A stretch of 64,000 nucleotides of DNA from a candidate division FCPU426 bacterium (lineage in GTDB: Bacteria; Oederibacteriota; Muellerivitia; Muellerivitales; Muellerivitaceae). The stretch is from NCBI GenBank assembly GCA_963719085.1, contig CAVRAL010000004.1:1088001-1152000 (forward strand), read 5' to 3'. Numbering within the stretch: the first letter of the stretch is position 1; the number at the start of each line of letters is the position of its first letter. Of this stretch, positions 2,672 to 62,110 are shown piece by piece. Both the position numbers and the translations under genes were made by a program. The notes beneath the pieces were generated by a model. That model was given only the letters and a program-made list of their open reading frames with translations. It was not told where the DNA came from and ran no database searches.

Positions 2672-2805
2672 TATTCCATGGCTTCATCGTTAAATAGCTT
2701 TGATTTCAGGGCTCAAAACGTTTCCAAGTTGCAGGAGCCTAGGGCGGCTGATACAATGCCGGGGCTCTGCGTTAAATAGAAAATTTCAATCATCGGGACT
2801 TGGAA

Positions 2806-3564
2806 ATGCGTGTTTTTTTATGGATTTTAGGCATTCTTGCGGCCTTGGCCCTGATCTACGTTCTGTTTGTTGGATTGGGATTAAGCCATATTTTTAAATC
2901 CCATAAACAACTCAAAAAAATCCAAGTTTTGAATGATTTTGAATATCCGGACACCGATTTGGATTGGACCACGGGCGGTTATGTGACCTTGGAAAGTTCC
3001 ACCGAGAACCAAACCCACGGAAAACGGTCCCTGGAAGCCACCTACTTACTCCCGTCGGAATTCATGACAATGCCGACCCCGATGCCCACGGCCGTGCCGC
3101 CTCCAGTGGCCGCTTCGAATCCCAGCGGCAAAACCAAAAAGAAAGCCCTGTCCGCGCCGACACCCACACCTGAGGAGGACTTGGAACCCACCGCCACACC
3201 CGTGAATTGGCTGCCCACGATTACCTTAAGCACGGATTCAGTGACCAAAATCCCGCTTTATGATTGGACTGGATTTACCACCCTAAATATTGACGCTTTC
3301 AATCCCCAGGATAAGCCGGTGACCTATCATTTGGCCGTGGCCGATGGCAGGTCCTTTCAATACGAGACTTCCGGTGAGTTGACCCCGAAGAAAGTCACCA
3401 ATGTGTCGGTGAACTTGAGTGATCTGCTTCAAGCCCGGTTGGACTTGTCCGCGATTAGGTCCTTGAGCTTGGCGGTGGATACCCAAGGCAACAGCCTGCC
3501 GGTTCAAGTTTATTGGGATTACCTGCGCCTGGAAGAAGTGCTTCAGCCCCCCGCCAAGAAATAA
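2806..3564 (+). CDS. Membrane-anchored protein with carbohydrate-binding-like beta-sandwich and Pro/Thr-rich insert
   Basis: N-terminal TM; LNDFE, THGKRSL, DWTGFTTLNIDAFNP and VYWDYLRLE resemble galactose-binding-like/CBM folds; PTPMPT...PTPTP insert. Confidence 0.55.
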   Translation: MRVFLWILGILAALALIYVLFVGLGLSHIFKSHKQLKKIQVLNDFEYPDTDLDWTTGGYVTLESSTENQTHGKRSLEATYLLPSEFMTMPTPMPTAVPPPVAASNPSGKTKKKALSAPTPTPEEDLEPTATPVNWLPTITLSTDSVTKIPLYDWTGFTTLNIDAFNPQDKPVTYHLAVADGRSFQYETSGELTPKKVTNVSVNLSDLLQARLDLSAIRSLSLAVDTQGNSLPVQVYWDYLRLEEVLQPPAKK

Positions 3565-5215: not shown

Positions 5216-5468
5216 GGCAGGCTCCCAAAAATCCGGATGTCGGGCGGAAGTATAGCAGACCGGATGCTGGTTGCTCCCGCCCAAAAATCGGTTAAAATAT
5301 TTGAAAAGGCCTTAAGCGGTTGAACCCCGGATGATGGGGCCTTAATTCCAGTCGCGATTATTTTGGACTGCCTCCCAAAATCCGCGTGTATCAATATTGA
5401 GAATCCAAAGCCGATAACCCAGAACCCGTCCCCGGCGGGTTTTCTGTTGAGCGCATTTGAAGGAACCC

Positions 5469-8400
5469 ATGAAGACCAACACGCTGAAGCCCGTTCAAAC
5501 CGGGGACATCATTGAAGTGGAAATCCAATCGCTCGCCTTCGGCGGGGATTCGGTGAGCCGTTATGAAGGCTTCGCTCTTTTCGTGCGCGGCGGTTTGCCC
5601 GGCGAGCGGGTGAAGATCAAAATCACCCAGGTGAAGGACCATTACGCCACGGGTGAGATCGTGGAGATCCAGCGTTTTTCCCCCGACCGCGTGGCCCCGC
5701 CTTGTCCCATTTTCGAGGAGTGCGGCGGCTGTCAGTGGCAGCACCTTAATTATCCCAAACAGCTCCAGACCAAGCGCCAATTCGTGGTCGACGCTTTACA
5801 GCGCATCGCCAAGATGGACTCCGTCTTGGTCCAACCCTGCCTGCCTTCGGAATCTTCCTACGCCTACCGAAACAAGGCCATGCCGGTTTTATCCATGCGG
5901 GACGGCCATTTCATCTCGGGCATTTACGAACCCCGCTCCCACAAACTGGTGCCTTACCAGAATTGCCCCATCCAAGGCGACGCGATCAATGACCTCATCC
6001 AAAAGGCGCTCAAAAAAATAGACCTGGCGGGTTTAACGCCTTACCAGGAAAAAAAGCATTATGGGTTTTTGAGGCATTTGGCCGTGCGCCAGGGCGTGGG
6101 GACGGGCGAGCTTTTGCTGGCCTTCGTGACCCGCACCCAAATGCCGGAAGAGCGCCTGCATAAAACGACTTTGCTTCCGGAACCCTTGGCTGAAATTTTG
6201 CCCCGGGTAGCCAAAGAGCTGATGGAGGAGATCCCGGGTTTGGTGGGGGTTTTGCAAAACATCAATCCTTCCCGCACCAACATTGTTTTTGGATCCTCGA
6301 CGGAAGTTTTGGCGGGCCGGGATTATTACTTTGAGAAATTCGACGGGCTGACCCTGAAGGTTTCCCTGAAATCCTTCCTGCAGGTCAACACGCCGCAGGC
6401 TCAGGTGCTGCATACCATCGTGCGGGAGGCGCTCGGGGAGCCCGAGGGCCGTAAAAAATGGGGAACGGTTCTTGATCTTTATTCCGGCATCGGCACCCTG
6501 GCCATGGCCGTGGCGGATCGGGCCGATTATGTGGTCGGAGCCGAGGAAGTCGCCCCGGCGGTCGAGGACGCCCGTCAAAACGCCGAATTGAACCGCAAAA
6601 CAAACATCGATTATCTGGAAGGGGATGTGGCGGACCTTCTTTTGAAATTGAAGGCCCAAGGTCTCTCGCAAATTGACGCGGCCATCATGGACCCCCCGCG
6701 AAAAGGGGTTTTGCCTGAAGTGTTATCCCGCTTGACGGCGTTGAAGCCTGAACGCCTGGTTTATGTTTCCTGCGACCCCACGACTTTGGCCCGGGACTTG
6801 GCGCTTTTAATGAAGCACGGCTACAGTGTGGATTGGGCCCAGCCCCTGGATATGTTTCCCCAAACCTATCACGTGGAAACCGTCGTCCGGCTGACCCGGG
6901 AAAAACCTTTGTCGCCCGAGGAAGCCGCGCCGGCCAAACCGGAGCTGGAGCCTTTCCGCCTTCCCAAGATGGCCCGGGTCAGCTTGAACATATCGGCTTT
7001 GGGTCAAAAGATTCAGTTTGGGGTCGCCGCGGCGCAAACCGCCCTTTCGGGCCTGTTCCAAAAGAAGGATTCCATTCACTGGCCTTTAGCGGATCCGGCG
7101 AAGCTTGTGGTTGAAAAAGAGGCGCTTGAGACGGTTTCGGTGGAAGCGGCGAACGAAGAGCTGACGTTGGAATCCAGCCTGGAAGTTTCCGAGAAAGACG
7201 CCTTGGCCGAGCCGCTGCCCTCCCAGGCGCGGCCGGAGCGCCAGTTCCCGAATCAATGGATCGCCCTGCTTCGGCAAGGGACCCGGAATTTCCCCTGGAG
7301 TCCCCGGACGATCGGCATCGCTTTGCTTCTTTTATTCATCCTCGCCGGAGGCAGCTACTTCGCGGTGGCGGATTTGGCGCCCCTAATCGCCCGGTCCCCC
7401 TTCCAAGTGGCGACTACGCCGCAATTTATCCCCGATACCATCGCCATCATGCCCACGCGGAATTTTTTGAGGTATGAAATGGTGCCTTTTGAGGTGCGCA
7501 TCCATCCGGAGGACATGCCGCATTTTTCGGCCATGCACGCCGTGGTGGAGGTTTTTCATGACGGACAACCCGTGGCTATGGTGGATGGAAAAACGAAACT
7601 GTACCTAAAAAAAGACCCGGCGAACGCCCGTTTCATCGGCAATTGGCCCATTCCTTATAATCCCGAACCCGGCACCTACACCGCCCAAATCGCCTTGACC
7701 GGACCCCAGTGGCCCGACCCCAAAGGTTTCGAGTCCGCCTTTACCATTTCGCCTTTGAAGCCCTCGGGACTTTATCCGGGATACTCCGCGCTCACGATGG
7801 AAGGCGGCAAGCATCTATTCAACGGGGTGGTTCCGCCCGTGGATGGAAAGGGCCCGGATAGCCTGGCCAACGCGATGGGGTGGGTTAAATTCATGGGCGC
7901 TAACACCTATTGTTTTCTCGCCGGGCAGACCTCGGTTTGGGATAAGTTGAACCTGAAAGATTTTCCCTTTAACCGCGGAGACGTGGAGCTGGCCCATCGT
8001 TACGGCGCGGCGGCCCATGACGCGGGATTGAAGTTCGCGGCTTACATGACCACCTTCCGGGTGGTGGGCGATGGATGGCAGCAGGCCCAAGGCCATTATC
8101 AGTTCACCATGGGCTATGACGCGGATTCGGACCAAGTAGTCCCCACCGATTTTATTTCGCTTGAGGATCCCAACCGGCGGCAGGACATCGTGGGCTTATT
8201 GAAGGAGCTGGATAAAGACCCGAACATCGACATGATTGGCCTGGATTATGTCCGCACCGGAACGGGCGGCTATGAAATGGTCGATGAGTTCGTGCGCGAT
8301 TTGAACGTGCCGGGCCCGGCGGATTATTGGTCCATGTCCAAGGATGAGCGCATCCATTGGCTGGCCCGAACGGTGGCGCTCAAAGAAAACAAGGATGTGG

Positions 8401-9302
8401 TGGCGCTTTTTGAGTGGTGGCGCGCGCACAAGGTGGCGATGACCTTGAAGGCGCTGCTCGATCAAGCCAAGCTCAGCAAACCCGTTTTCACTTTCACCTT
8501 GGGCTGGGACATGGGACATGAGCATGGGCAAGATCCGGCCATGTTTGAGGACGCCGGAGTTAATTTTAACCACATCATGCTTTATCAAAGCGACCGAAAA
8601 ACGATTGAGCAAATGAACCTGCAATGGCCGGCTTATATTTCCCGCAGCAACGGCATGTACGCGCTGGGCGAGATGGTGGATGAGAATTGGGTTCAGGACT
8701 CCATCAACCCTCCGGGCCCGGAAGAGCTTTATAACCGGGAAGCGGAAACCTTCCAGAGCTGGCAGCCCGTCAACGCCGGGATCGGCATGTTTTGGCACGA
8801 CCTCTACCGTTTGATTTACGGCCAGAAGGGTCCCTATAGCGCCATGGAATGGGCGGTGGCCGGCGGCAAGGCGTTCTCCTTATTACAGCGAACCGAAGGC
8901 GTTTTGCCTTTGGAAATAGAGCTGACGATCCCGAAAGAAGCCCCGGCGGGGGTTCCGATTCCCATCAGCGTGATGATTCACAACTCATCCATTAACCCGA
9001 TGACCGGCATCGTGCTGCACCAGGTGGATACCTCCAAAGAATATTTCACCGACTTGGCCACCGTGGGCCCCTTTGACATTCCGGCGGGGGACATGGTCCG
9101 GGTCAAGGACCTTTATGTAACCCTTCCCAAAGAACCCCACCCGGAAAGGGACGACCGTTACATGGCGGCGGTGCTCGCGGAAAAACCCGGACAATCCTTA
9201 AGGGCCTTTGATTTCGCCTATGTGAAGGCTTTGCCGCCGGGGACGGCGATCAAGGCTACTGACATGCCAAAACCCGACGATGTCAAATCGGCGAACGAAT
9301 AA
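5469..9302 (+). CDS. rlmD: 23S rRNA m5U methyltransferase RlmD fused to TM helix and extracytoplasmic glycoside-hydrolase-like domain
   Basis: TRAM domain, CPIFEECGGC Fe-S motif, SFLQVN, DLYSGIG, DPPRKG, YVSCDPTTLARD, DMFPQTYHVE; then linker, TM (~7308-7370) and a ~640-aa domain containing DMIGLDYVR. Confidence 0.85.
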   Translation: MKTNTLKPVQTGDIIEVEIQSLAFGGDSVSRYEGFALFVRGGLPGERVKIKITQVKDHYATGEIVEIQRFSPDRVAPPCPIFEECGGCQWQHLNYPKQLQTKRQFVVDALQRIAKMDSVLVQPCLPSESSYAYRNKAMPVLSMRDGHFISGIYEPRSHKLVPYQNCPIQGDAINDLIQKALKKIDLAGLTPYQEKKHYGFLRHLAVRQGVGTGELLLAFVTRTQMPEERLHKTTLLPEPLAEILPRVAKELMEEIPGLVGVLQNINPSRTNIVFGSSTEVLAGRDYYFEKFDGLTLKVSLKSFLQVNTPQAQVLHTIVREALGEPEGRKKWGTVLDLYSGIGTLAMAVADRADYVVGAEEVAPAVEDARQNAELNRKTNIDYLEGDVADLLLKLKAQGLSQIDAAIMDPPRKGVLPEVLSRLTALKPERLVYVSCDPTTLARDLALLMKHGYSVDWAQPLDMFPQTYHVETVVRLTREKPLSPEEAAPAKPELEPFRLPKMARVSLNISALGQKIQFGVAAAQTALSGLFQKKDSIHWPLADPAKLVVEKEALETVSVEAANEELTLESSLEVSEKDALAEPLPSQARPERQFPNQWIALLRQGTRNFPWSPRTIGIALLLLFILAGGSYFAVADLAPLIARSPFQVATTPQFIPDTIAIMPTRNFLRYEMVPFEVRIHPEDMPHFSAMHAVVEVFHDGQPVAMVDGKTKLYLKKDPANARFIGNWPIPYNPEPGTYTAQIALTGPQWPDPKGFESAFTISPLKPSGLYPGYSALTMEGGKHLFNGVVPPVDGKGPDSLANAMGWVKFMGANTYCFLAGQTSVWDKLNLKDFPFNRGDVELAHRYGAAAHDAGLKFAAYMTTFRVVGDGWQQAQGHYQFTMGYDADSDQVVPTDFISLEDPNRRQDIVGLLKELDKDPNIDMIGLDYVRTGTGGYEMVDEFVRDLNVPGPADYWSMSKDERIHWLARTVALKENKDVVALFEWWRAHKVAMTLKALLDQAKLSKPVFTFTLGWDMGHEHGQDPAMFEDAGVNFNHIMLYQSDRKTIEQMNLQWPAYISRSNGMYALGEMVDENWVQDSINPPGPEELYNREAETFQSWQPVNAGIGMFWHDLYRLIYGQKGPYSAMEWAVAGGKAFSLLQRTEGVLPLEIELTIPKEAPAGVPIPISVMIHNSSINPMTGIVLHQVDTSKEYFTDLATVGPFDIPAGDMVRVKDLYVTLPKEPHPERDDRYMAAVLAEKPGQSLRAFDFAYVKALPPGTAIKATDMPKPDDVKSANE

Positions 9303-9465: not shown

Positions 9466-10233
9466 ATGGCCTCGTCCAAGTGGTTCTTGATCCTCGTGGG
9501 GACCCTGGGGATTTCTTTTTTAACCGGTTGCGGGGCGATTTTCATCAACGAAGGTTCCAAAGAATATTCCCGAACCGATAACCTTCAAAACCCCGACGAG
9601 AACAAACCCAAGGTCGTTGTGCCGGCCGAGCAGTGCCGGATCAGCGATTTCCAAGATTCCAGCACCGATGTTAACTCCAAGCTTTTTGGCGCCAGCGGCG
9701 GCACTTGGATCGCTTTTTCTTTCGGCGGCAACACGGTGAACAGCCCCTTTTTGGTGCCGGGCGGGGCGAATGGCGACAAGATGGCGGCGCATATCTATGG
9801 AACCTTAACGGACAAGGGAGACGCCTCTTATCCCTCTTTCACGCTTTCGTGCCAATTCACCCAAAGCGGTTTATATGACGCGTCCAACTTTACCGGGATC
9901 AAGTTCTACTATAAATGCCCGTCGAAGGACCAATCGTTGAAACGCCGGTTGGCCTTGGGGACGTCCCCCACCTTGCCGGCCTCCGCGGGCGGCAATTGCG
10001 CGGCGAATTGTTTTGACCATTTTGGAACCACGCTTCATTCTTCCGAGGATTGGGCGGTTTACAACTTGAAGTTCACCGATTTGACCCGGGAAGGCTGGGG
10101 CGCGCCGGTCACGCCGCCGGATTTGATTGATCATTTGAAAGAATTCATCAATTTATCATGGAACAACAGCGCCAATAACACGGCGGGAAGTTATCCGATT
10201 GACTTCTGGGTGGATGACGTCGAGTTTTTCTAA
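9466..10233 (+). CDS. Lipoprotein with CBM11/CIA30-like domain (paralog 1)
   Basis: Lipobox FLTG-C; YDASNFTGIKFY, GGNC..NCFDHFG, C-terminal DFWVDDVEFF. Confidence 0.75.
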   Translation: MASSKWFLILVGTLGISFLTGCGAIFINEGSKEYSRTDNLQNPDENKPKVVVPAEQCRISDFQDSSTDVNSKLFGASGGTWIAFSFGGNTVNSPFLVPGGANGDKMAAHIYGTLTDKGDASYPSFTLSCQFTQSGLYDASNFTGIKFYYKCPSKDQSLKRRLALGTSPTLPASAGGNCAANCFDHFGTTLHSSEDWAVYNLKFTDLTREGWGAPVTPPDLIDHLKEFINLSWNNSANNTAGSYPIDFWVDDVEFF

Positions 10234-10285
10234 AAAGTTTCGAACCGTTTAAACGACGGGACTAATTGTCAAACGAGAGGTTTTT

Positions 10286-12826
10286 TTGACTTTTCGCTTT
10301 CAAAACCTATTGACGGCCTTTTTCGTCCTTGTTTTTGGGGGGGCGATCGTTTCCGGGGCCTTCGCCGATCCTTTCGCCGATGTCACGGCGGATCAAAGTC
10401 TTTACCAACGGGTAAAAAAGTTGGGGGACGATGGTTTGCTGGATGCTCAAGACCGGGCGGTGTTGGATCAAGGCAAGGTCGTGAGCCGGCTGGAACTGGC
10501 TTTCTATACGGAAAAGGCCAAGGCCCGCATTGAAGCGCCTGAGCTGGCCCAGCCGGCGATCGCCACACCCACGCCGCAAGCCTTGCCGTCTCCCGTGATT
10601 TTGGCGCCCACGGCCGTGCCGACCGCCGCTCCGCCTTCCATTTATCCGTCGGCGGACAAGCAAGAAATTGAGGAACTGCTGAAAGAATTCCGCACCGAAT
10701 CCGTGCTTCTCAAGAGCCGTTTGAGCCTGGATGACACGCGCATCAAGGAACAAGAGGATGAATTGGACAAGCTCAAGACGGTCCAAGACGAAGTGGACGA
10801 GATTTGGAAGAAAGCCAATAAGTCCTCGGGAATCCCCAACCTTTACACCAACATCAATATGCGGGTGGAAAATATCAGCCTGTCGGGCCCGCTGACCCAG
10901 GAAAACGCCACCCGAATCCTTCAAGAAATTTACGTCGGAACCTACTCCGACCTGGGGGGCAAGGGCACCCTTTCGGCCGGCTTGGGAGCGCTGATTCCGG
11001 TGGATGGCGCCAACGCCTCTTACCAGCTTTTGGGCGTGGGAACGCAGCCGGTCTCGCTTTATATCGGGAATCCCAGCGTCACTTTCTTTAACTACGGGGA
11101 CCTGGGCCGGTGGGACACCACCTTCGCCGTGGAAACCTACCAGCCCGACACCAGCTTCGGGGCTTTCAGCCGCGGCTACGCCAATTACGCCATCAAGCGG
11201 TTTGAGGATCCTTTCGACATTAAAAATTTCAATGACGATAAAGACGCCAAAAACTGGGACGATTACATGAATCAGGTCAGCTATATCCCGGCCTATTCCA
11301 TGTCCGCGGGGAACGTGCAATCGGCGAACGACCGCGTGTTTGACGGCATGTACCTGGCGGGGAAGCAGGTTCCGTGGCTGGGTCCGGACGGGCGCATGTG
11401 GGTATTGGTGGGCCGCATGGGGACCAGCCCTTCCCAAACCCAACGCTGGGAAGAGGGCGCCAAAATCATGGAGCCTTGGGCGAATAATTTAGTCACGACC
11501 TCCATTTCCACCGAATGGGTGAACGATAACTTCGGCGTGAACCAAGCGCCCCAGCTGGATATGAAGGATTACGAGTTGGAGTTGAAACTCAACACGCCCG
11601 TGGCCGTTGATGTGGACGCCGGATTCTCCCATTTTTCCACTGGAGTGGACATCCTCAACCCGGCGGTCACGGCCGCCAATCCGGAAGCTTTGGAAGCCGG
11701 CGCGGGGCAGGCTTCGGTGGCTTATTATCCCTTCACGCTTTACGGCTTCGCGATCAGCGATGAATACGCCGACTTCCAAAGTAAGGTCACCATGAGCGGC
11801 CTTAACTTCGCCCGCTACGGCCTTTATTTCAGCCCCTCGGACTACAACGACGCCTATGGTTCCATCGGGGAGGTGGACAATCTTCAAAGCGACCGTTACG
11901 GCTGGCGCCTCAATGTGGGATGGGACGGCCGCAAACAGGATTGGATGAAGGAATGGCCCTCCTTTTTGGATACTTTCGTCGTCAATTTCGACGTGTCGCA
12001 GAAGACCGAATTCACCTCCGAGGTCAACAACGAAGGCGTGACCTCGGGTTACAACGAGATCGAGCCGACCCAAATGTTGAGCTTTTATTATCCCGACGAC
12101 GAAGGGCTTTGGGGCTTGAACCTCTGGGGCAATTATTCCCCCAACGTGAATCCGGTCCGTCAGGACTACATCAATAATATCGAGGACATCCGAAACGACG
12201 GGGACGTGTTGAATGATGATGTGCGCTATCAGTTCCGGATGACCAATGAGAGACTGCCTCTCATCATCCCGATTTATTCAGGCCCCGGAACCATCTTGAC
12301 CGACGGCAATGGCCATAATGTTTACTACAACATCACCAATATCAAAACCTACAACTACATCACCTTGACGACCAAACTGAAGTTCGACAAATGGTTCAAC
12401 CTGCCTCGGCCCCTGGATGGTTCTTTTTACATGACCGACAACGTGGTTTCGGGTTTGGCGTCCCAGGCCAATAACGCGCCGCTTCCTGCCGGCGCGGACC
12501 CCGCCTCGAATACCGAACTTCCCATGTCGGGCGCGATCCCGAACTTGTTTGAGCAGCGGGTCTTCAGCGGCGCCTTGATGGTCAGCCTAATGGACGACGT
12601 GGACTTGATGGCCGATATGGGATTGGAAACCTGGCGCAGCGCCTATACCTACCCCCAGGTGGACTACCAAACCCATGAGTACGGGCTGGGTGTCGCTTAT
12701 GACATCCCTTGGTGCGGGGGGAAAATGGAATTGCGTTATAAGCATATCGATTTCAATGATAAGTACGTCCCGGATAATGATTATTCGGGTGATCAGTTCT
12801 TTACCAAAATTAAGTTCATGTTTTGA
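10286..12826 (+). CDS. Large outer-membrane beta-barrel with N-terminal SLH-like domain and coiled coil (OmpM-like) 1
   Basis: TTG start after GAGAGG; signal peptide AFA; FADV...LYQRVKKL..DGLL...SRLELA; Pro/Thr linker; coiled coil IEELLKEF...; ends KIKFMF. Confidence 0.7.
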   Translation: MTFRFQNLLTAFFVLVFGGAIVSGAFADPFADVTADQSLYQRVKKLGDDGLLDAQDRAVLDQGKVVSRLELAFYTEKAKARIEAPELAQPAIATPTPQALPSPVILAPTAVPTAAPPSIYPSADKQEIEELLKEFRTESVLLKSRLSLDDTRIKEQEDELDKLKTVQDEVDEIWKKANKSSGIPNLYTNINMRVENISLSGPLTQENATRILQEIYVGTYSDLGGKGTLSAGLGALIPVDGANASYQLLGVGTQPVSLYIGNPSVTFFNYGDLGRWDTTFAVETYQPDTSFGAFSRGYANYAIKRFEDPFDIKNFNDDKDAKNWDDYMNQVSYIPAYSMSAGNVQSANDRVFDGMYLAGKQVPWLGPDGRMWVLVGRMGTSPSQTQRWEEGAKIMEPWANNLVTTSISTEWVNDNFGVNQAPQLDMKDYELELKLNTPVAVDVDAGFSHFSTGVDILNPAVTAANPEALEAGAGQASVAYYPFTLYGFAISDEYADFQSKVTMSGLNFARYGLYFSPSDYNDAYGSIGEVDNLQSDRYGWRLNVGWDGRKQDWMKEWPSFLDTFVVNFDVSQKTEFTSEVNNEGVTSGYNEIEPTQMLSFYYPDDEGLWGLNLWGNYSPNVNPVRQDYINNIEDIRNDGDVLNDDVRYQFRMTNERLPLIIPIYSGPGTILTDGNGHNVYYNITNIKTYNYITLTTKLKFDKWFNLPRPLDGSFYMTDNVVSGLASQANNAPLPAGADPASNTELPMSGAIPNLFEQRVFSGALMVSLMDDVDLMADMGLETWRSAYTYPQVDYQTHEYGLGVAYDIPWCGGKMELRYKHIDFNDKYVPDNDYSGDQFFTKIKFMF

Positions 12827-12834
12827 GGATTGGG

Positions 12835-15138
12835 ATGAAATTAACGGCTTCTCAAAATTTTAAAGGCTTTGGAACGGTTCTAAGCTTCGCGCTGGGCGTC
12901 CTCAGCTTCGTCCTCGGCTGCGCCTCGCCGGCGTGGGCGGACCATGGCAAGCTCGCGTCCGCGGACCGGGACGCTTGGATCAATTGGGATGTTTCCGAAC
13001 TGGTCGCGGCGGGCCTCGTTCCCGCCCCGGAAAAACCCGTGGAGCAAATGACGAATTTAGAAGTGGCGGAGCTCACCGCCAGCGCCTCCCGGCTTTATAT
13101 GGCCCAGGCGGACGTGAATATGCTTCCCCCGCCGCTTCCGACGGATTCCCCCGCCGCTTCCGACGGTCCGGGCCTTCCCGGAGCGTTGTCGGCCGAAGGG
13201 CCGGGGGACGCCAATAAAAGCTTGGGTGACTTGGTGCAGGAGTTCCGAGGGGAACTGAGCGCCATGGGCCTGGAAGTCGACCAACTGGAAGACCGGATCA
13301 CGGATGAAAAAACCCGCAATGAGGTATTCGCCACCCTCCAAGAGGATTATTTAAAAAGAACCGGCACCGAGGTCGGAGGGTCTTCCCGCGGCTACATGTA
13401 TAACTACCGGGGGTTCGGGGCCAACAGCCTTTATGGGCCCATGGGCTATAACGCCGCCATGTATTTGGAAGTGGATTTGAAAAGCGTGCCCATTCCCTCC
13501 ATCTTGTTCGACGCGCGCTTAAGGCTTTGGCGTTCCATTGGGATGTATTACCAGGATCCCGTCCAACCGCCTTACCAACTGCGCTGGATTTCTTTGACCA
13601 GTTACAACGACTTCGGTAATTTCACCGCGGGTGATTTTTTTAAGAGCTACACGCCCTTAACCCTTTGGAGCTATGACGTGCCGCTTTATACCATGATCGA
13701 GCCGACCTCTTTCCACCGCGACCGGGTGGACACCGAGGAGTTGGTTTATATGGATCAGAGTCCCGATTGGCATTTCCGGGGTTTTGAGGCGGAGACGGGC
13801 AAGGAATGGCCGAAAGATCCCGTGTTGAGTGGATTTAAATATCAGGTCATGTCGGGTCTCATGCAGGAACCCGGATCAACCAGCGGCGGATCGGTTTTTG
13901 GAAGCTATTACCTGGGCAGCCAAGGGTCACTGGGTCTTTTCAACCACATCCTCGATTTTACCAGCACGGGGTTGGTTTTATTTAATGATCCCGAAAGCGC
14001 CAATGTGCCTTATCAGCCCAATCAACCCTCCACTTTTCCCAAGCAATACGTGATCGGCAGCGTGACCTCCAAGACCACGATTCCTTTGGGGGACAAGGCG
14101 GACTTGAGCGCTTCCATGGAAAACGCCTTCAGCCAATATGACGATGACTTGAACAATCCCCAGCGGGTGTTCAAGGACTGGGCTTTATTGGCCAATGGTT
14201 CGCTCGATGTAGAGGGCGTCCATTTTACGGCGAAGTATATGAACAACGGCCCTTATTTTTATTCGCCCGGCGCCCAGACGAACAAATACACGCCCGCCTC
14301 GGGCTCGCCGGGATATTTAAGCTCCAATTTGGGAAGCGAATTCAGCGGTTTGGACAGCGGCCTTCCGGGTTACTTGAACCAGTTCGTCTTCCAGAACGTG
14401 AACCGGCCCTTCTTCGCGCCTTACGACCGTTTATCCGAAAACTTTTTGCCCTATGGCGATGCCTCCCCGAACCGGGAAGGCCTGGTGCTGGGTTTCTCGG
14501 CTGAGATCGGGGAGAAGGGCTGGCTCAAGCCCCAAGCTTCCTATGTGGTGACCGGGCAAGAAATTCAACCCAACCTGGTTTTGAACGGGGCGGGGACCGC
14601 GGCCATCCCGGTGGACAGCCAAACCAACACCACCACGCCCCGGGTTTTCGGGGGATACGAAGGCGCCCTATCGATGGATCTGGCCAAGGCTTTTGATCTG
14701 AACAATCAAACTTACGATGTCCAAGTGGACTATAAACACCAAACCGATGACTTGGGGCTTGGCGGGGTCAGTCCCTTTACCGTGAACACGCTTATTTTGG
14801 CGGGCGACTTTAATATTCCGGTCCACTTCCTGTCGACGGTGGTTTGGTCGCTGGCCTTTGAGCGCGCCCAAGCCAGCGGCAGTGAGTACGTTTTCGGGGG
14901 GAATCCCGAGACCTGGGCGAGTTATTCGTTCTATTTAGATGATTCGGAGCTCGGCCAGTATATTTATGAGCCCCTGAATCTGACCCGTCAAACCCTGGCT
15001 TTTGGCGCGATGCTGCCCCTGGGGGACAAGATCGATTTCAGGGCGGACCTATTTTTAACCCGTTACAACTGGGCGGATATCCCGACCTATGACCGGCAGG
15101 ATCAAATTTGGAGATTCACTTATGAAGCGCATTTCTAA
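12835..15138 (+). CDS. Large outer-membrane beta-barrel with SLH-like domain and coiled coil (OmpM-like) 2
   Basis: Signal peptide AWA; ELVAAGLV...MTNLEVA; LVQEFRGELSAMGLEVDQLEDRI coiled coil; ends FTYEAHF. Confidence 0.7.
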   Translation: MKLTASQNFKGFGTVLSFALGVLSFVLGCASPAWADHGKLASADRDAWINWDVSELVAAGLVPAPEKPVEQMTNLEVAELTASASRLYMAQADVNMLPPPLPTDSPAASDGPGLPGALSAEGPGDANKSLGDLVQEFRGELSAMGLEVDQLEDRITDEKTRNEVFATLQEDYLKRTGTEVGGSSRGYMYNYRGFGANSLYGPMGYNAAMYLEVDLKSVPIPSILFDARLRLWRSIGMYYQDPVQPPYQLRWISLTSYNDFGNFTAGDFFKSYTPLTLWSYDVPLYTMIEPTSFHRDRVDTEELVYMDQSPDWHFRGFEAETGKEWPKDPVLSGFKYQVMSGLMQEPGSTSGGSVFGSYYLGSQGSLGLFNHILDFTSTGLVLFNDPESANVPYQPNQPSTFPKQYVIGSVTSKTTIPLGDKADLSASMENAFSQYDDDLNNPQRVFKDWALLANGSLDVEGVHFTAKYMNNGPYFYSPGAQTNKYTPASGSPGYLSSNLGSEFSGLDSGLPGYLNQFVFQNVNRPFFAPYDRLSENFLPYGDASPNREGLVLGFSAEIGEKGWLKPQASYVVTGQEIQPNLVLNGAGTAAIPVDSQTNTTTPRVFGGYEGALSMDLAKAFDLNNQTYDVQVDYKHQTDDLGLGGVSPFTVNTLILAGDFNIPVHFLSTVVWSLAFERAQASGSEYVFGGNPETWASYSFYLDDSELGQYIYEPLNLTRQTLAFGAMLPLGDKIDFRADLFLTRYNWADIPTYDRQDQIWRFTYEAHF

Positions 15139-17515
15139 AAATTTATCGCTGCCCCTAACCGCCGCGGCCCTGACCTTAGGTCTGAGTCCGGCCCTTTTTG
15201 CCTCCACGGACCCGGTCCCCCAACAGAACTCGGCTGTCTTGTTCTCGACCGTTCCACTGGGCGATTCGACCTATGGGCGCTTGAGCCAGTTAGAGAAGGC
15301 CGGTCTTTTGCCCGCGGGCGCCGCCCAGCCGCCCCTGACCCGTTATGAAGTGGCCCAAGATATTTTGACGGCTCAAAACCGCTACCACCAAATCGTGGTG
15401 GCCGACGCCGATACGGACATGCTGCCTTCGGTGGAAGATTTAGGAAACGCGGGTGTGACCGCGGCTCCCGGGTCGGACACGGCCCTAACCGCTTCGGTTA
15501 CCGCCCCGGCCGCGCCTTCGGAACCGGTGACGGAGTCCGACGCGGATCTGGCCAAGGCCGCTCAAACCTTAACCAGCCTGCAAGACGCCTATCAATATGA
15601 ATTAAAAGCCGTTCAGGGCCAAAAAGACGCCACTTTGAAATCCTCCTCGGATGTGGAAGCCGGACAATACGATTTGTGGAAAAGATTGAAGGGGATTTCC
15701 GAATATCCCACCGTGGCCTGGCATGGGTTGGGAAGGGCGTTCCAAATTGCCCAGCAATATTACGGCGATACGGGCGCCATCGGGTTGAGCCACAACTCCA
15801 CCCAAACCGAATTGGGTTATATCGATTTTGAGCCTGAAGGCGTGGTCGATAAAGAAATCCGCTGGGATATGATCTTGCGTTATAAAACGCTGATGGAGTC
15901 GAACCAATCCGCTTCCATCGATACGCTCACCGTCCGCCGGGTCACCATGGATTATAACGCGCCTTGGGTTTCGGTCACCTTGGGTGATTTCGACGAGGCT
16001 TACACGCCTTTAACCCTTTGGAACCGGGATAATTTAGACCTGCGCTATAAACCCGAAATGATCGCCCGGGAAGACGATACTTTGAAATACGAAAGCTTTT
16101 TAAATAACGAGCCCAATTGGCCTTTCCGCGGCGCCCGGGCCAGCACGGAACTTTTGTGGCCCAACTCGGATCTGCTGGACCGCTTTAAAATTTCAGTGAT
16201 GGCCGACATGATCGCCAACGGTTTCAACGACACCACGGGACAGGCTTTTTATTACGGACCGGATAATTTCACCGACTTTATTTTCGGCGCCGACAGCGAG
16301 CTCAAGTCCAAGCGCTGGTATTTGGGCGGGAACGCCTCGATCCAATTGGCGATGGACGCCTACGCGGTTGTTTTGGCCGAGCCTTTGGGCACCAACCAAC
16401 CCAATTCCATTTACGTTCAATTCAATCCCGATACTTGGGCCCATCATTATCAGATCATCAGCTTGAAGCCTTCAGTGGACTTCGGGCTGGGGGATGACGC
16501 GTCCTTTGGGGGCGTTTGGGAAGGCGCTTCAGCGGTTTATCAGGACGATGAGCGGGACAATAATAAAATTGTCAGCGATTACGCCATCCTGGCGGGACCT
16601 TACTTACGGTTGGGCCATTCCAAGCTGACCTTCAACTATCTTTATGTGGGACCCTATTACTATTCGCCCCTGGCCCAGACCCGGCAGGATGATCTGGTCC
16701 CGGGTTCCAACGCGCAAGGCGCCGCCACCCCCGAGCTTTTCGACGCTCCCCTGCGCAGCCAGTTTTTCCTGAACGGCATCCCCCGCGCCGGCGGAATCTT
16801 CGGTTATTACGACCGCACCCAGGACAATACCTTCCCCTATGGGTTGGCGACTCCCAACCGGCAGGGCGCCGGGCTTGATTTGGACGTGAAAACACTTGAT
16901 AAAGACGCCCTGCAAATCTTGGGGTCGATCTACTTTGTTCAGGAAATCAGTGATAACCTTGTGGAAGAGAGCCAGGGCGGGGTTTATGTTCCGGTTCCGG
17001 TGGACGGGACCGCGTCGGCCCCGACCCCCCAGCGCAGTTTCACTTACGTGAATGTGGGACCCTCGTTGAACCTGGGGCCCGCTTTGGGCTTGGACCAGGA
17101 TTTAGTCGTGGGAACCAACGCCCGGTTCGAGCAGACCAACAGCTCGGTCGGCACGCTGACCAGCGCCTGGCTTTTAGGCGGAGTGCAGGTGGGGTTGTTC
17201 CCTTGGTGGGAAATGGCGGCTTCCTATAGCGACCAGGAAATAAAGGGCCATGACACCGGCATTGGGAACACCACTTTGGCGAGGTATTCGTATATTTTTG
17301 ATAATTCGGATTTTGGTTCTTACAACGTTTTTACGATCGACGGCAGCAACCAAAGTTTCCGCTTGTCGAGCGTGTTCAAGATCAACCGCAACTCGAGCCT
17401 TTATCTGGATTACGACCTGACCGGCGGGGACGCGGTCCCCTACGTGGGGTCCACGGCGCCGGGAACGAAGCTGAACAACCAGTACCTGGAGATGACTTAT
17501 GAAATCCAATTCTAA
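15122..17515 (+). CDS. Large outer-membrane beta-barrel with SLH-like domain and coiled coil (OmpM-like) 3
   Basis: FSTVP...YGRLSQLEKAGLL...LTRYEVA SLH-like motif; shares GDF..YTPLTLW, GPY.YSP.AQT, YDR..N..PYG.A.PNR.G with barrel 2; ends MTYEIQF. Confidence 0.7.
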   Translation: MKRISKNLSLPLTAAALTLGLSPALFASTDPVPQQNSAVLFSTVPLGDSTYGRLSQLEKAGLLPAGAAQPPLTRYEVAQDILTAQNRYHQIVVADADTDMLPSVEDLGNAGVTAAPGSDTALTASVTAPAAPSEPVTESDADLAKAAQTLTSLQDAYQYELKAVQGQKDATLKSSSDVEAGQYDLWKRLKGISEYPTVAWHGLGRAFQIAQQYYGDTGAIGLSHNSTQTELGYIDFEPEGVVDKEIRWDMILRYKTLMESNQSASIDTLTVRRVTMDYNAPWVSVTLGDFDEAYTPLTLWNRDNLDLRYKPEMIAREDDTLKYESFLNNEPNWPFRGARASTELLWPNSDLLDRFKISVMADMIANGFNDTTGQAFYYGPDNFTDFIFGADSELKSKRWYLGGNASIQLAMDAYAVVLAEPLGTNQPNSIYVQFNPDTWAHHYQIISLKPSVDFGLGDDASFGGVWEGASAVYQDDERDNNKIVSDYAILAGPYLRLGHSKLTFNYLYVGPYYYSPLAQTRQDDLVPGSNAQGAATPELFDAPLRSQFFLNGIPRAGGIFGYYDRTQDNTFPYGLATPNRQGAGLDLDVKTLDKDALQILGSIYFVQEISDNLVEESQGGVYVPVPVDGTASAPTPQRSFTYVNVGPSLNLGPALGLDQDLVVGTNARFEQTNSSVGTLTSAWLLGGVQVGLFPWWEMAASYSDQEIKGHDTGIGNTTLARYSYIFDNSDFGSYNVFTIDGSNQSFRLSSVFKINRNSSLYLDYDLTGGDAVPYVGSTAPGTKLNNQYLEMTYEIQF

Positions 17516-18320
17516 ACAACGGTGGTTCGGCCGCGTGAGCGGCGTCGCGGGCTGCGTCGCGCTCTTGGGCGGGTTGGTTCTTCTGTTGAATTCGGGCTGT
17601 CAATCCAGCGTCCCGGGTTTCGGGAATTATGCCGCCCCCAACTCGGTGCCCAACAGCAACCGGGTGGACCAGTTCGCCACCGGAAGTATCGCCATTAATC
17701 CCAACCTTTTCGAGGACAACAACCCGCCCAGTTACGTCTTGAAAACGCCGGGTTCGGTGACCTTCGTGAATAATTTCCCGACTTACGGATCCGGCAGCGG
17801 CCAATTGGTGCCGGGCGCCGGCGCGGTCAGCCCCTACGCTTACCAAATGTCGGGCGCGGTGACGGATTTGCTCGACAACACTTTTCCGGCCTTGGATTTG
17901 GAAATTCCGATGGAAAATTACACTTATTACGACGCGAATCATTTTAGCGGCGTCAAGTTTTACCTGAAAGTGGCCGATGATGATACGGCGGCCCACCGGG
18001 TGTTCGCCATCCCCGTGGCGCAAACCGTTCCCACGGGAACCAACAACGGCACCTGCCCGGCGGGGCCCAAACGCTGCTACGATCATTTCGCGGCGGACTA
18101 CAGCGGCGGCACCGGGGGCCAATGGCTTCTTTCCAGCTACAATTTCAGCGATCTCCAACAGCTTCAATCCGGCTACGCGCCGGTGGTCCCCACCTTGACC
18201 GGGGATAACGGGGCCAACTTGAAACAGACGCTTTGGCTGCAATGGGAAGAAGGAAACAACAACAAAAAGCCGGGTCTTGCCACGATCGATGTTTATGTGG
18301 ACGATATCGAGTTTTTTTAA
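17499..18320 (+). CDS. Lipoprotein with CBM11/CIA30-like domain (paralog 2)
   Basis: Lipobox-like NSG-C; YDANHFSGVKFY, GTCP..RCYDHF, ends DVYVDDIEFF. Confidence 0.72.
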   Translation: MKSNSKQRWFGRVSGVAGCVALLGGLVLLLNSGCQSSVPGFGNYAAPNSVPNSNRVDQFATGSIAINPNLFEDNNPPSYVLKTPGSVTFVNNFPTYGSGSGQLVPGAGAVSPYAYQMSGAVTDLLDNTFPALDLEIPMENYTYYDANHFSGVKFYLKVADDDTAAHRVFAIPVAQTVPTGTNNGTCPAGPKRCYDHFAADYSGGTGGQWLLSSYNFSDLQQLQSGYAPVVPTLTGDNGANLKQTLWLQWEEGNNNKKPGLATIDVYVDDIEFF

Positions 18321-18378
18321 AACAGTGGTAATTTTAAAGCAAGGTGGCTTGGGCAGAGCCCAAGCGGGGAAAGTGGCT

Positions 18379-19146
18379 ATGAACAACAAATCAGTTTTAA
18401 TTTTGGGCTTGGCGTTATTGGGCTTGCTCCAGGGATGTACGGAGAAGCTTCCCTTATCCAATCCGAATCTTATCTTGGCCCAGCCTTTGCCCGTCACGGT
18501 GGTCTCCGACTTTGGCAACGCCTCCTTGAAGACAAACCCCACGCTTTTTGACAGTGAAAAGGGTTTCTTTTTGGATGGATCCTACGCTTATAAAACGGAC
18601 AGCGGCTTGCAGCTGACGACGCCGCTTGTCAGCGCTTCCTTTCCCGATCCCAGCAACAGCCCCTACGCCTTGCATCTTTTCGGGACCTACATCGACTATG
18701 GCAACGGCGGTTATCCGGCCTTCGAACTGGAATGCTTTCCCCGCGCCGACAGCCAATTTTACGACCTCACCTCTTTCGCCGGCCTGACCGGCATTGAGTT
18801 CGACTGGTGCACCGGACCCACGGACAACTCAAATCAATACTTTTTTTGCCTGATCACCGCCCGCATCGCTCCCCAAAGCATCGGCGGGGATGGAACCTGC
18901 GGCACCCCCGGCGCCGTGCCTTGCTACGATTACCTCGGCAATTCGCTTTTTGGGACGGGCGGGAACTGGTTCCAGCTTCAGCTGCCTTTCAGCAATATGA
19001 ACACCCAATATTCTTCGGGCAGTCCGACCAACGTCACGGCCGCGGATATGACCCATGTTCTTCAATTAATGTGGACCAACCGGTCCAACAATGTTTCGGG
19101 CAATTACACCTGCGATATGTGGTTGGATGACATCCAGTTCTATTGA
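18379..19146 (+). CDS. Lipoprotein with CBM11/CIA30-like domain (paralog 3)
   Basis: ATG 18379; lipobox LLQG-C; GTC..PCYDYLG; ends DMWLDDIQFY. Confidence 0.75.
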   Translation: MNNKSVLILGLALLGLLQGCTEKLPLSNPNLILAQPLPVTVVSDFGNASLKTNPTLFDSEKGFFLDGSYAYKTDSGLQLTTPLVSASFPDPSNSPYALHLFGTYIDYGNGGYPAFELECFPRADSQFYDLTSFAGLTGIEFDWCTGPTDNSNQYFFCLITARIAPQSIGGDGTCGTPGAVPCYDYLGNSLFGTGGNWFQLQLPFSNMNTQYSSGSPTNVTAADMTHVLQLMWTNRSNNVSGNYTCDMWLDDIQFY

Positions 19147-19169
19147 TCGCCGGTTGAACCCATTTTTTT

Positions 19170-19200
19170 AAAAGGCGCGGCTAAAAGCCGGGCCTTTTTT
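19170..19200 (+). terminator. Intrinsic terminator
   Basis: AAAAGGCGCGGCT-AAA-AGCCGGGCCTTTTTT (one mismatch). Confidence 0.75.
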
Positions 19201-19279
19201 ATTTAAACTTGGTTTTAACGGGGAACAAAACCGTATTTTTAGCCCCGGAGGTTGTGGAAGCCCAATTTTTGTCCCCGGG

Positions 19280-19288
19280 TGGTATAAT
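19280..19288 (+). promoter_or_regulatory. Extended -10 promoter element for paralog 4
   Basis: TG-G-TATAAT about 75 nt upstream of ATG 19363. Confidence 0.55.
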
Positions 19289-19362
19289 TCAATAACGCCG
19301 ATCTAAATATAAAATATAAACAACCCAATGGCCGCCCCGCGTTTGAGTATGAGGAGGACCCT

Positions 19363-20148
19363 ATGAACAGCCGGACAAAATTGGTTTTATTATTCGCCGC
19401 GCTTTTCTGCCAAGGATGCCAAAACAATTCGCCCGCCGCGCAGTCGTTTTTGGCGCCCGCCCTTTCGAACAAAGTCGTGTCGAACTTTGGAGAGGCTTCG
19501 CTCAAGGTTAATCCAACCTTAACGGATTCGGCGGCGGGAACTTTTATCGATGGTAGTTATGGTTTCAGCGGCGATAGCGGCCTCGGGTTCGCCCCGCCCT
19601 TGGCCGATCCAAGCGGCAACCCTTACGCTTTGCATCTCTTCGGCGATTATATCGATTACGGCAACAACGGTTACCCGGCTTTTGAGATAGAGTGCCTGCC
19701 CCGGGCGAACGCTTCCTATCCCAACAACCTGTTTGATCTCGGGAGCCTCCAAGGTATCTCCTTCTGGTGGAACCGGGGGACGGATGACAACGCCAATCAG
19801 GTATTCTTTTGCCTGGTCACGGCGCGGATCGCCCCCCCCAGCATCGGGGGCGACTGCGGCGACCCCGGCAACCCCAGCACGGTGCCTTGTTATGACTACC
19901 TGGGGAATTCGCTTTTGGTATACCCCAGCGGCCAATGGTCTCATGTCACCCTTGATTTCGACGGTATGGGACTCCAGTATGGAGCGGGTGGTCCCGGCAC
20001 TGTCCAGACATACGATAGACAGCAGGTGCTTCAGTTCATGTGGACCAGCCGTTCGAATAATAATTCGAGCGCCAATAACCCGGCTGGGGGCCCGCCGGCC
20101 CAAAAATACACCGCTGACATCTGGCTCGACGACGTCGAATTATATTGA
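19363..20148 (+). CDS. Lipoprotein with CBM11/CIA30-like domain (paralog 4, close paralog of 3)
   Basis: GAGGAGG SD; lipobox FCQG-C; shares PYALHLFG.YIDYGN.GYPAFE.EC.PRA and FFCL.TARIAP.SIGGD with paralog 3. Confidence 0.78.
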   Translation: MNSRTKLVLLFAALFCQGCQNNSPAAQSFLAPALSNKVVSNFGEASLKVNPTLTDSAAGTFIDGSYGFSGDSGLGFAPPLADPSGNPYALHLFGDYIDYGNNGYPAFEIECLPRANASYPNNLFDLGSLQGISFWWNRGTDDNANQVFFCLVTARIAPPSIGGDCGDPGNPSTVPCYDYLGNSLLVYPSGQWSHVTLDFDGMGLQYGAGGPGTVQTYDRQQVLQFMWTSRSNNNSSANNPAGGPPAQKYTADIWLDDVELY

Positions 20149-20172: not shown

Positions 20173-20199
20173 GGCGCGGTTAAAAACCGCGCCTTTTTT
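20173..20199 (+). terminator. Intrinsic terminator
   Basis: GGCGCGGTT-AAA-AACCGCGCC-TTTTTT. Confidence 0.85.
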
Positions 20200-20303: not shown

Positions 20304-22103
20304 TTGTCGCTCGACCATATCCGTAATTTTTGCATCATCGCCCATATCGACCACGGCAAAAGCACGCTGGCGGACCGCCTTTTGGAATTCACCGGCGCCA
20401 TTCCGCCCCGGGAAATGCGCGCCCAATTGATGGACCAAATGGATCTGGAACGGGAGCGGGGCATCACCATCAAGGCCAAGGCCGTGCGTTTTTTTTATAA
20501 GGCCAAAAACGGCAAGCGCTACGAGATGAACTTGATCGATACGCCAGGCCACGTGGATTTTAACTACGAGGTTTCCCGAAGCCTCAAGGCCTGCGAGGGG
20601 GCGCTTTTATTGATCGACGCCTCCCAAGGCGTGGAAGCCCAGACCCTGGCCAACGCCTTTTTGGCCATGGATCAGAAACTCACCATTATTCCCGTCATCA
20701 ATAAAATCGACCTGCCGGCCGCGGACGTGGAGCGCTGTAAAAAACAAATGGAAGAATCACTCGCCATCGAGGGCTCGGAAGCCATCTTGGCCTCGGCCAA
20801 GGATGGTTTGGGCATCGAGGATATTTTGGAGGCGATTGTGGAGCGGGTGCCGCCGCCCCAGGGCGAGGCCGCCGACCCGGTGAAGGGCCTTATTTTTGAT
20901 TCCATGTTCGACATTTACCGCGGCGTCATCATCTTCGTGCGGCTTTTGAACGGCACCATCCAAAAGGGAACCAAGATGAAGTTCATGGCCACCGATTTGG
21001 TTTTTGAGATCGAGGAAATCGGCGTCTTCAAACCCAAGATGGAAAAAGTCGAGAAGCTTTCCGCCGGGGAAGTGGGCTACATCTGCGCCAATATCAAGGA
21101 AGTGCGCGACGCCAAGGTGGGGGACACCATTACCGAAGCCAGCCGGCCCACCGCGGAGGCCCTGCCCGGGTTTAAGGATGTGTTGCCCATGGTTTTTTGC
21201 GGGCTCTTTCCCATCGACTCCGAGGACTACGACCACCTGAAGGAATCCCTGTCCAAGCTCAAACTGTCCGACGCGGCGCTTTCGTATGAGCCCGAGACTT
21301 CCGTCGCCTTGTCTTTCGGTTTTCGCTGCGGTTTTCTGGGCCTGCTCCATATGGAAATTGTGCAGGAACGTTTGGAGCGCGAATACAACCTCAACCTGAT
21401 CGCCACGGCGCCCAGCGTCATTTATCAGGTGGTCAAAACCAACCAGGAAGAAGTTTGGGTCGACAATCCGACCAAACTGCCCGAGATCACCTCGATCCAG
21501 GAAATCCGGGAGCCCATCATTGACGCGAAAATTATCGTGCCCGCCGATTATATCGGCGCGGTCATGACCCTGTGCCAGGAGCGCCGGGGAATTCACAAAA
21601 ACACCAGCTTCCTGGATCCCACCCGGGCCCAGATCGCCTATGAGCTTCCCCTGGCCGAAGTGGTCATGGATTTTTTCGACAAACTTAAAAGCTGCACCAA
21701 GGGCTACGCGTCGCTGGATTATGAGCCCATCGGCTACCGGGCGGGCCATATCGTGAAGGTCGACATCCTGCTGAACAACGAAGTGGTGGACGCGCTGTCC
21801 TTTATGGTGCATCGGGACAAGGCCGAGGCCCGGGGGCGGGGAATCGCCGAAAAGCTAAAGGAAATTATTCCCCAGCAGCTTTTCGAGGTGCCGATTCAAG
21901 CCGCCATCGGCGGAAAAATTATCGCCCGGGAGACGGTTCGGGCCCGCCGCAAGGACGTTTTGGCCAAATGTTACGGCGGGGATATCAGCCGCAAACGGAA
22001 ACTATTGGAGAAACAAAAAGAAGGTAAGAAGCGCATGAAGAACATCGGCAGCGTCGAAATACCTCAAGAAGCCTTTATGGCCGTCTTGCAGGTAGAGGAT
22101 TAA
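20304..22103 (+). CDS. lepA: Elongation factor 4 (LepA)
   Basis: [38 protein letters not shown]-terminal [18 protein letters not shown]. Confidence 0.98.
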
Positions 22104-36776: not shown

Positions 36777-36852
36777 TGTCCGAGCTGTGCCTGACACCGA
36801 ATTCTTTTGGTATCATGGGGGGCCGGGGTACTTTTACCTTTAAGGAATTACA

Positions 36853-45111: not shown

Positions 45112-45127
45112 CCACGGCCAAGACTTT

Positions 45128-61994: not shown

Positions 61995-62007
61995 TCGTTA
62001 GATTGGT

Positions 62008-62039: not shown

Positions 62040-62110
62040 GTTTTAGAAGACTTTTATTTATCGATGCGATATGACTCTGTAATTCAGTTGGGCCAACATA
62101 GTTCAATTTT

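Follow-up and report, generated by a model that had tools for sequence, protein, structure and literature searches.

A candidate wall-tethered, three-barrel outer-membrane cassette related to the Cytophaga chu_1276-1280 cluster in a candidate division FCPU426 bacterium

We analyzed a 64,000-nucleotide stretch of DNA (the window) from a candidate division FCPU426 bacterium (assembly GCA_963719085.1, contig CAVRAL010000004.1, positions 1,088,001 to 1,152,000 of the forward strand), which carries a cassette of seven co-oriented, tightly packed plus-strand genes coding for four lipoproteins (LP1-LP4) and three candidate outer-membrane barrels (B1-B3). The cassette opens with LP1 (9460/9466-10233), the best-conserved lipoprotein, which is predicted to adopt a CBM11/CIA30-type beta-sandwich and lies immediately 5' of B1 (10286-12826; 846 amino acids, aa), a protein with a signal peptide, an SLH domain, a Pro-rich linker, a coiled coil and a predicted 22-strand, plug-less barrel. 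B2 (12823-15138; 771 aa) and B3 (15089-17515; 808 aa, with a likely ATG start at 15122) each combine an SLH-like segment and a coil with a barrel assigned to the CHU_1277 family by hhalign and, for B3, also by phmmer. They are followed by three LP1-paralogous lipoproteins, namely LP2 (17499-18320; recognized by alignment and by tblastn, E 2e-19 to LP1), which comes after B3 in most loci, LP3 (18277/18379-19146; recognized by alignment) and LP4 (19363-20148), a near duplicate of LP3 (51-54% identity). Two plus-strand, terminator-like stem-loops, one in the gap between LP3 and LP4 (19178-19190) and one 3' of LP4 (20173-20193; 9 pairs and a T run), are consensus matches only. A preliminary description of the window, made from the sequence alone, had placed a terminator between LP3 and LP4; the stem-loop exists, but the scan that found it returned 30 such elements against 25.3 +/- 4.6 by chance and is overall not above chance. 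The same description had given the seven open reading frames (ORFs) in the order lipoprotein, three barrels, three lipoproteins; all are present at that place, the barrels end in Phe, and each lipoprotein has a lipobox, a Cys pair and a DD ending. The cassette is flanked by a gene for an RlmD fusion protein (5457-9302) and by lepA (20304-22103), and it is single-copy in its own 99%-complete genome. Its seven proteins have no meaningful Pfam or NCBIfam match, and searches of PDB sequences gave no family; the sole Pfam signal among them is a DUF1547 match, below cut-off, in the linker of B2.

The barrels and lipoproteins are found in all 32 genomes of the order, many of which have several cassettes. 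Gene-neighborhood analysis of the 44 loci fetched from the best matches (42 distinct, as two pairs are duplicates, and some split or cut by contig ends) found the cluster conserved, with the B1-B2-B3 order kept in 44/44 and LP1 first in 39/44; the seven-gene cassette is real and conserved, well beyond chance. Across these loci, 24 represent a core copy at the rlmD/lepA site, with the rlmD fusion upstream in 22 loci and lepA downstream in 19. The remaining 20 are non-core copies, 18 of which adjoin genes for glycoside hydrolase (GH) families GH44, GH2, GH31, GH29, GH67, GH5 and GH42-like enzymes, CBM11-bearing proteins, sugar-binding proteins or galactokinase (scanned as cluster representatives rather than as every member), often with LacI or AraC regulators nearby. 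Based on the established activities of these families, the mix of GH44, GH2, GH31 and GH29 suggests xyloglucan as the substrate of some copies. Sixteen accessory cassettes (including those at L039, L040, L042, L044, L045, L047 and L049) are flanked by another lipoprotein family (cluster n2), which has Thr/Pro-rich linkers and lacks a Pfam match and may be a substrate-specific surface protein. The related loci carry the titles 'bacterium' or Candidatus Firestonebacteria, and proteins from another part of the phylum bear the name Candidatus Goldbacteria (among them P0363, which is the same as the L095 query), a group placed in the FCPU426 16S cluster (PMC7031533); we accordingly use the label Goldbacteria/Firestonebacteria phylum.

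In the AlphaFold2 model of B1 (83 sequences; pLDDT 78.3), a helical N-terminal domain and a disordered Pro-rich linker lead to a 60-residue helix (helices at 96-155) and then to a barrel, and the same architecture is predicted by alignment for B2 and B3. The DSSP list gives the modeled barrel 22 membrane strands, with consistent parity and short turns after the even strands; the long outer loops 3, 7 and 8 follow strands 5, 13 and 15 and measure 65, 46 and 110 residues, respectively. The model contains no plug, and the N-terminal SLH domain and coil leave no space for one. The preliminary description had called these barrels giant; this is overstated, since 22 strands is the size of a TonB receptor and falls inside the range of 16-30 quoted for OmpM-like proteins (PMC10628300). 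Its view of the N-terminal segment as SLH-like fared better: a profile of the three barrels matches the SLH chain of OmpM (8bz2) with E 0.0018, and the B1 model matches the same domain (8BZ2) with Z 12.5, a root-mean-square deviation (rmsd) of 2.1 and 29% identity over 82 aligned residues, a Z value that is borderline for a helical domain. The Pfam SLH model (PF00395) has zero matches across the whole of this genome. The canonical SLH motif is TRxE; B1 and B3 have TRxE-like versions, and in B2 an Asn replaces the Arg.

Fold searches match the barrel part of the B1 model equally and weakly to ushers, TonB receptors, AlgE and OmpM, and because of this tie they do not assign it to a family. A direct alignment of B1 with B3 covers the SLH part alone, the comparison of the barrels having failed; hence, B2 and B3 are close paralogs and B1 a distant one. 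The spacing between coil and barrel is nearly invariant in each paralog (51 residues in 78/79 B1, 43 in 47/47 B2 and 41-43 in 54/54 B3 sequences), whereas the Pro-rich linker can be as short as 26 or as long as 173 residues. In B2 and B3, loops 3 and 7 are more conserved (0.72-0.75 and 0.65-0.67) than the remaining barrel (0.57-0.58). ESM Atlas neighbors are unnamed clusters, most commonly of Fibrobacterota for B3 (0.95-0.96) and of mixed taxa for B1 (0.91-0.94), and serve as leads only.

LP2-LP4 are 27-31% identical to LP1, and a lipobox-like motif (by a loose regular expression) is present in 35/35 LP1 and 23/31 LP2 homologs; the lipoproteins also have conserved Trp/Tyr residues. Among the fetched loci, no relative gave a separate LP4-type best match. 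The AlphaFold2 model of LP1 (pLDDT 90.7) best matches CtCBM11 (1v0a; Z 16.6, rmsd 2.8, 160 aligned), followed by the complex I assembly chain 7zkq_A (Z 15.7), so that the CBM11 and CIA30 matches tie within 1 Z. This model places LP1 in a CBM11/CIA30-type sandwich fold, shared with CtCBM11 (1V0A/6R3M) and CIA30/NDUFAF1, in agreement with the preliminary description; the cassette lipoproteins differ from CBM11 in falling below Pfam detection and in being stand-alone lipoproteins with an added Cys pair. The top Foldseek match of LP1 is the CBM11 structure 6r3m, which is likewise the top match reported for the C-terminal domain of the Cytophaga hutchinsonii protein CHU_1279, a domain described as resembling this CBM11 (PMC12016534). 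A complex prediction for a single pair, the B3 barrel and LP2, scored 0.00 with controls that did not fold, and is evidence neither way.

The link to an experimentally studied system comes from B2 and B3. With B3 as query, phmmer reaches a family of unnamed 570-aa proteins (family A9), whose members, where named, belong to Cytophagaceae, Flavobacteriales or Bacteroidia. Both barrels align to this family in hhalign (B3: P 99.95%, E 1.6e-37, 507 columns; B2: P 99.95%, E 5e-38, 497 columns) over almost their entire barrel, the motifs being strongest in loops 3 and 7. The membership in family A9 of CHU_1277, an outer-membrane protein of C. hutchinsonii, was approached through the antigen peptide of CHU_1279 given in PMC12016534, which we scanned against metagenomes. 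This led to a locus (L036) coding for a 375-aa protein in the 90% cluster of CHU_1279 (WP_011584666.1), a 385-aa protein upstream at the position of CHU_1278, and the first part of a gene that corresponds to a GH9 gene in locus L037. The L036 gene at the chu_1277 position ends in the same six residues as 6/141 members of family A9, and its C-terminal pattern occurs in 44/141 members against 0/1425 long ORFs of the present genome. Moreover, the first ~360 residues of CHU_1277, as given in Table S2 of PMC5553014, show the consensus motifs of the family in order, starting at strand 1, in a by-eye comparison with no computed score. On these alignments, the B2 and B3 barrels are homologous to the CHU_1277 family. 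In members of the latter, strand 1 is preceded by a median of 29 residues (by more than 80 in none of 116), and they therefore have neither a plug nor an SLH domain. As these Cytophagales homologs keep the barrel without SLH domain or coil, the conserved function likely resides in the barrel. Further searches were less productive: those of plasmids with a member of the Cytophagales family and with the B1 barrel gave no match, and in the PDB, the B1 barrel of Goldbacteria and the profiles of the Cytophagales family retrieved nothing but noise or an unspecific match to an OprF barrel. At the level of literature listings, which exclude subscription journals, bioRxiv supplements and figures, no publication was found that ties CHU_1277 to SLH-bearing barrels or to the Goldbacteria/Firestonebacteria phylum, and the PMC5891637 supplement has no entry for CHU_1276 or CHU_1277.

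Versions of the cassette extend across the phylum and beyond it. The Cytophagales profile matches 66/99 genomes of the phylum; 56 of the 99 have both barrel and GH9, 10 barrel only, 8 GH9 only and 25 neither, counts that include kin and are not independent. Outside the order, in the part containing Goldbacteria, 17/20 fetched loci code for a B1-like barrel paired with a CHU_1277-like one and, behind them, for lipoproteins; GH9 often precedes the pair (immediately upstream in 4 scanned loci), and further neighbors include BNR-repeat (GH74-like, by our label), GH44, GH31, GH2, CBM9 and CBM11 proteins. One of the Goldbacteria lipoprotein counterparts hits CBM11 (PF03425) below cut-off. The first Goldbacteria barrel aligns with B1 from end to end (P 98.6%) and, in its C-terminal half, with the Cytophagales family (P 92%, E 6e-7); the direct comparison of B1 with family A9 failed (P 10%), and the link from B1 to the Cytophagales barrels thus passes through Goldbacteria. 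Below cut-off, 4/4 scanned Goldbacteria B1 proteins match SlpA_C (E 3e-7 to 9e-4); Pfam gives no SlpA_C or other OmpM/SlpA barrel match for B1-B3 themselves. All of these barrels may accordingly form one superfamily of OmpM/SlpA ancestry, in a chain of sequence comparisons that is weak at its ends. In a quick tree of 69 sampled rows, B2 and B3 form two separate, well-supported groups, both lying on the same side of a 99% branch. Given a root outside them, this fits the origin of the triplet from a pair by duplication. A divergent three-barrel cassette in another family (L098; G074:C1:596500-616400), with three small downstream proteins, one of them CBM30-like, suggests a second origin of the triplet, because its two CHU_1277-like barrels group apart from B2 and B3 in the quick tree. 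One match of B3 is named as Chitinivibrionales (P0198), a Fibrobacterota homolog; like the mostly Fibrobacterota Atlas clusters nearest to B3, it is a lead rather than a survey. By eye, this protein and P0162 have an apparent short N-terminal coil and no SLH domain, which looks like an intermediate between tethered and bare barrels.

Taken together, we interpret the cassette as a three-barrel, wall-tethered variant of the chu_1276-1280 kind, distinct from the SusC/SusD systems and TonB-dependent transporters. Like the Cytophaga cluster, it has barrel genes followed by genes for CBM11-fold proteins (a likeness at the level of the fold only), no SusC/SusD and, in the Goldbacteria version, an adjacent GH9. 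It differs in having three barrels instead of two, each with an SLH domain, linker and coiled coil that the Cytophagales family does not have, and single-domain lipoproteins that are not alignable to CHU_1278/1279; moreover, no hydrolase adjoins the present copy. CHU_1276 and CHU_1277 are reported to be needed for cellulose use and CHU_1279 to be a cellulose-binding protein (PMC12016534); papers citing the original studies involve CHU_1276 in glucose uptake and CHU_1277 in cello-oligosaccharide assimilation. With moderate confidence, we favor a channel that works without TonB, is tethered to peptidoglycan and is probably a heterotrimer; together with CBM11-like lipoproteins at the surface, it would take up fragments of glycans and be homologous to this 'atypical polysaccharide utilization locus'. 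The preliminary description had proposed a wall-anchored, non-Sus channel with CBM-like partners; the folds, gene order, glycan-gene context of paralogs and CHU_1277 homology support this, but the homology to chu_1276-1280 also means that the system is not without precedent.

Under this model, B1, B2 and B3 would each be a plug-less, 22-strand channel, and their SLH domains and coiled coils would most likely join in a single three-chain stalk hooking the complex to the cell wall. OmpM is reported to trimerize in a comparable way, through a three-chain coil that unites three SLH domains, with inward loops 3 and 7 constricting the pore (PMC10628300). The cassette shares with OmpM (Veillonella parvula OmpM1, PDB 8BYM/8BZ2) and SlpA of Deinococcus the SLH-coiled coil-barrel layout, the match to the 8BZ2 SLH domain and the long loops 3 and 7. 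In contrast, B1 is predicted to have 22 strands against 16 in OmpM1 and 30 in SlpA, barrel similarity is weak (SlpA_C below cut-off, in Goldbacteria B1 only), and the long, variable Pro-rich linker and dedicated CBM11-like lipoproteins are particular to the cassette. Further, while the solved structures are homotrimers, the three distinct, ordered paralogs suggest a heterotrimer drawn from three genes: three fixed paralogs with nearly invariant coil lengths fit one such complex, and the Asn for Arg in the SLH motif of B2 fits non-equivalent SLH sites. We slightly favor a B1/B2/B3 heterotrimer, whereas a direct contact between lipoproteins and barrels strikes us as evenly balanced. The Goldbacteria pair would correspondingly form a 1:2 complex. 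The conserved loops 3 and 7 probably reach into the pore and determine its selectivity, and the CBM11-like lipoproteins at the cell surface may bind beta-glucan-type chains or fragments and feed or cap the channels. Since there is no plug, uptake should be by facilitated diffusion, driven by periplasmic hydrolysis and by ABC import and binding proteins rather than gated by TonB. The present copy is the core copy, fixed at its site, and may in addition act as a general porin and tether. The SusC/SusD utilisomes of Bacteroidota offer a parallel in their 22-strand-size barrels with co-encoded surface lipoproteins and in the spread of paralogous cassettes across different glycan loci. They differ in that the cassette has no plug, no SusD and no detectable sequence relationship to them, and is predicted to be passive and wall-anchored. 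In line with the preliminary description, which had recognized no plug or SusD, Pfam finds neither in the seven proteins; SusD (PF07980) is absent from the entire genome, with a positive control in Bacteroides, and 7 plugs lie elsewhere in the genome.

Several observations weigh against an uptake function or against parts of the model. The present copy sits between the rlmD fusion and lepA with no recognized carbohydrate-active enzyme gene as neighbor, and GH9 is absent both next to it and from its genome (0 at E<=1e-20; the genome has 6 GH5). In the phylum, family f3 has GH9 and GH5 in 5/5 genomes without the barrel. AlphaFold2 models cover B1 and LP1, the structures of B2, B3 and LP2-LP4 being read from alignments. 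The coil anchor of B1 lies ~8 residues further from the barrel than those of B2 and B3, so that the anchors are not strictly equivalent, and the long loops of B1 are no more conserved than its strands (0.56-0.63 vs 0.64). On the side of the lipoproteins, Pfam CBM11 (PF03425) matches 0/4 of those in the window and 0/36 LP1 homolog rows, the LP1 fold is also that of CIA30, a non-binding assembly factor, and LP1-LP4 have no sequence match to CHU_1278- and CHU_1279-like proteins. Binding-damaged variants of CHU_1279 are also reported to restore growth (PMC12016534), and the role of the lipoproteins may therefore be partly structural. Finally, a word-limited search for a CHU_1276 homolog with B1-type barrels returned 47 matches, none named Cytophagales, which leaves B1 as no more than a putative counterpart of CHU_1276.

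Some of these points would suit an alternative that we regard as unlikely, in which the cassette is the OmpM/SlpA-type envelope tether and general porin of the lineage, its CBM-fold lipoproteins are lids or assembly factors, and only some duplicates were recruited to sugar loci. The fixed housekeeping site of the core copy, the presence of barrels in all 32 genomes of the order, including 5 without GH9, the OmpM-like layout, the weak SlpA_C matches of Goldbacteria and the structural tie of CIA30 with CBM11 all point in this direction. On the other hand, 4 OmpA-domain proteins of this genome could tether the membrane, barrel matches are missing from 29 genomes of families f3-f7 and f9, and the Cytophagales homologs retain the barrel without the tethering parts; moreover, tethering and uptake are not exclusive and can coexist. 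Decidedly less probable is a platform on the cell surface that adheres to insoluble polysaccharide or positions hydrolases and whose barrels transport little, as the uptake and assimilation roles assigned to CHU_1276 and CHU_1277 in the citing papers, along with the large barrels, conserved loops and adjacent sugar-binding proteins, fit import. We consider an AlgE- or usher-like exporter of polysaccharide or protein very unlikely: AlgE fills the top Foldseek rows of B1 and ushers the top VIA barrel rows, but such matches are unspecific (TM 0.26-0.27 by query, 6-11% identity, rmsd 5-13), TonB receptors and porins tie with them, and the neighboring genes code for hydrolases, sugar kinases and sugar-binding proteins and not for synthases. 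TonB-dependent transporters with an unrecognized or separately encoded plug are scarcely credible, for despite the 22 strands, the TonB receptors among the VIA matches (Z 10-12), the 5 TonB_C matches in the genome and the structural matches to such transporters mentioned for CHU_1276 (PMC12016534), strand 1 is preceded by SLH and coil in B1 and by a segment of signal-peptide length in the Cytophagales family, Plug (PF07715) is absent from B1-B3, and no tonB/exb gene is among the scanned or recurring neighbors.

Through this cassette, CHU_1277 joins a family spanning at least three phyla, with an indicated plug-less barrel and a suggested origin from wall-tethering porins. It has been described as unresolved how bacteria of the Cytophaga type, with neither cellulosomes nor SusC/SusD, take up cellulose, and the chu_1276-1280 cluster was reported in three Cytophagales species only (PMC12016534); the phylum studied here includes demonstrated cellulose binders (PMC7031533). 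The cassette offers a concrete model for this poorly understood route of plant-sugar uptake, which predicts passive oligosaccharide flux, selectivity set by loops 3 and 7, hetero-oligomers of barrels and lipoprotein lids, and it provides a marker for non-Sus glycan loci in an uncultured phylum. In a wider scenario, which we think possible without favoring it, the CHU_1277-family barrels would form the core, common to Cytophagales, Fibrobacterota and the Goldbacteria/Firestonebacteria phylum, of a third route by which polysaccharides are taken up, one independent of TonB. This route would have arisen from OmpM/SlpA-type wall-tethering porins, and the present locus would code for its channel as a 1:1:1 heterotrimer that is anchored to peptidoglycan and has CBM11-like lipoproteins as caps; paralogous cassettes would be specialized for different glycans.

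Upstream of the cassette, the RlmD fusion combines a methyltransferase, a membrane segment and a strongly conserved exported C-terminal domain of ~640 aa without Pfam or PDB match, which could be a periplasmic partner of the cassette. Further 5' lie two unannotated ORFs (2800-3564 and 3731-5284); the 517-aa product of one resembles, in position and size only, cluster n18, found 5' of the rlmD fusion in three loci. Downstream, a GH5 protein and a GH44/GH51-like protein with a galactose-binding domain are encoded at 35163-39573. The preliminary description had considered it plausible that the secreted GH-A enzymes of the window feed the cassette. This link is unsupported, and we reject the GH5 and GH44-like genes as parts of the locus: 15 kb with lepA, dnaK and further housekeeping genes separate them from the cassette, and the conserved neighbors of this copy are rlmD and lepA. 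The C-termini of both GH proteins weakly resemble FlgD-Ig/type IX secretion system (T9SS)-substrate tails, and similar ends recur on Goldbacteria hydrolases, hinting at a T9SS-like sorting signal in the phylum. Two tandem DUF1207 proteins (above cut-off) are encoded at 44188-46009, with an unannotated 357-aa ORF after them, and a PolC-type DNA polymerase III alpha, above its curated cut-off and in a diderm lineage, at 47369-51043. At the end of the window (62001-64000), the G+C content drops from ~0.55 to 0.39, possibly marking the edge of an acquired island.

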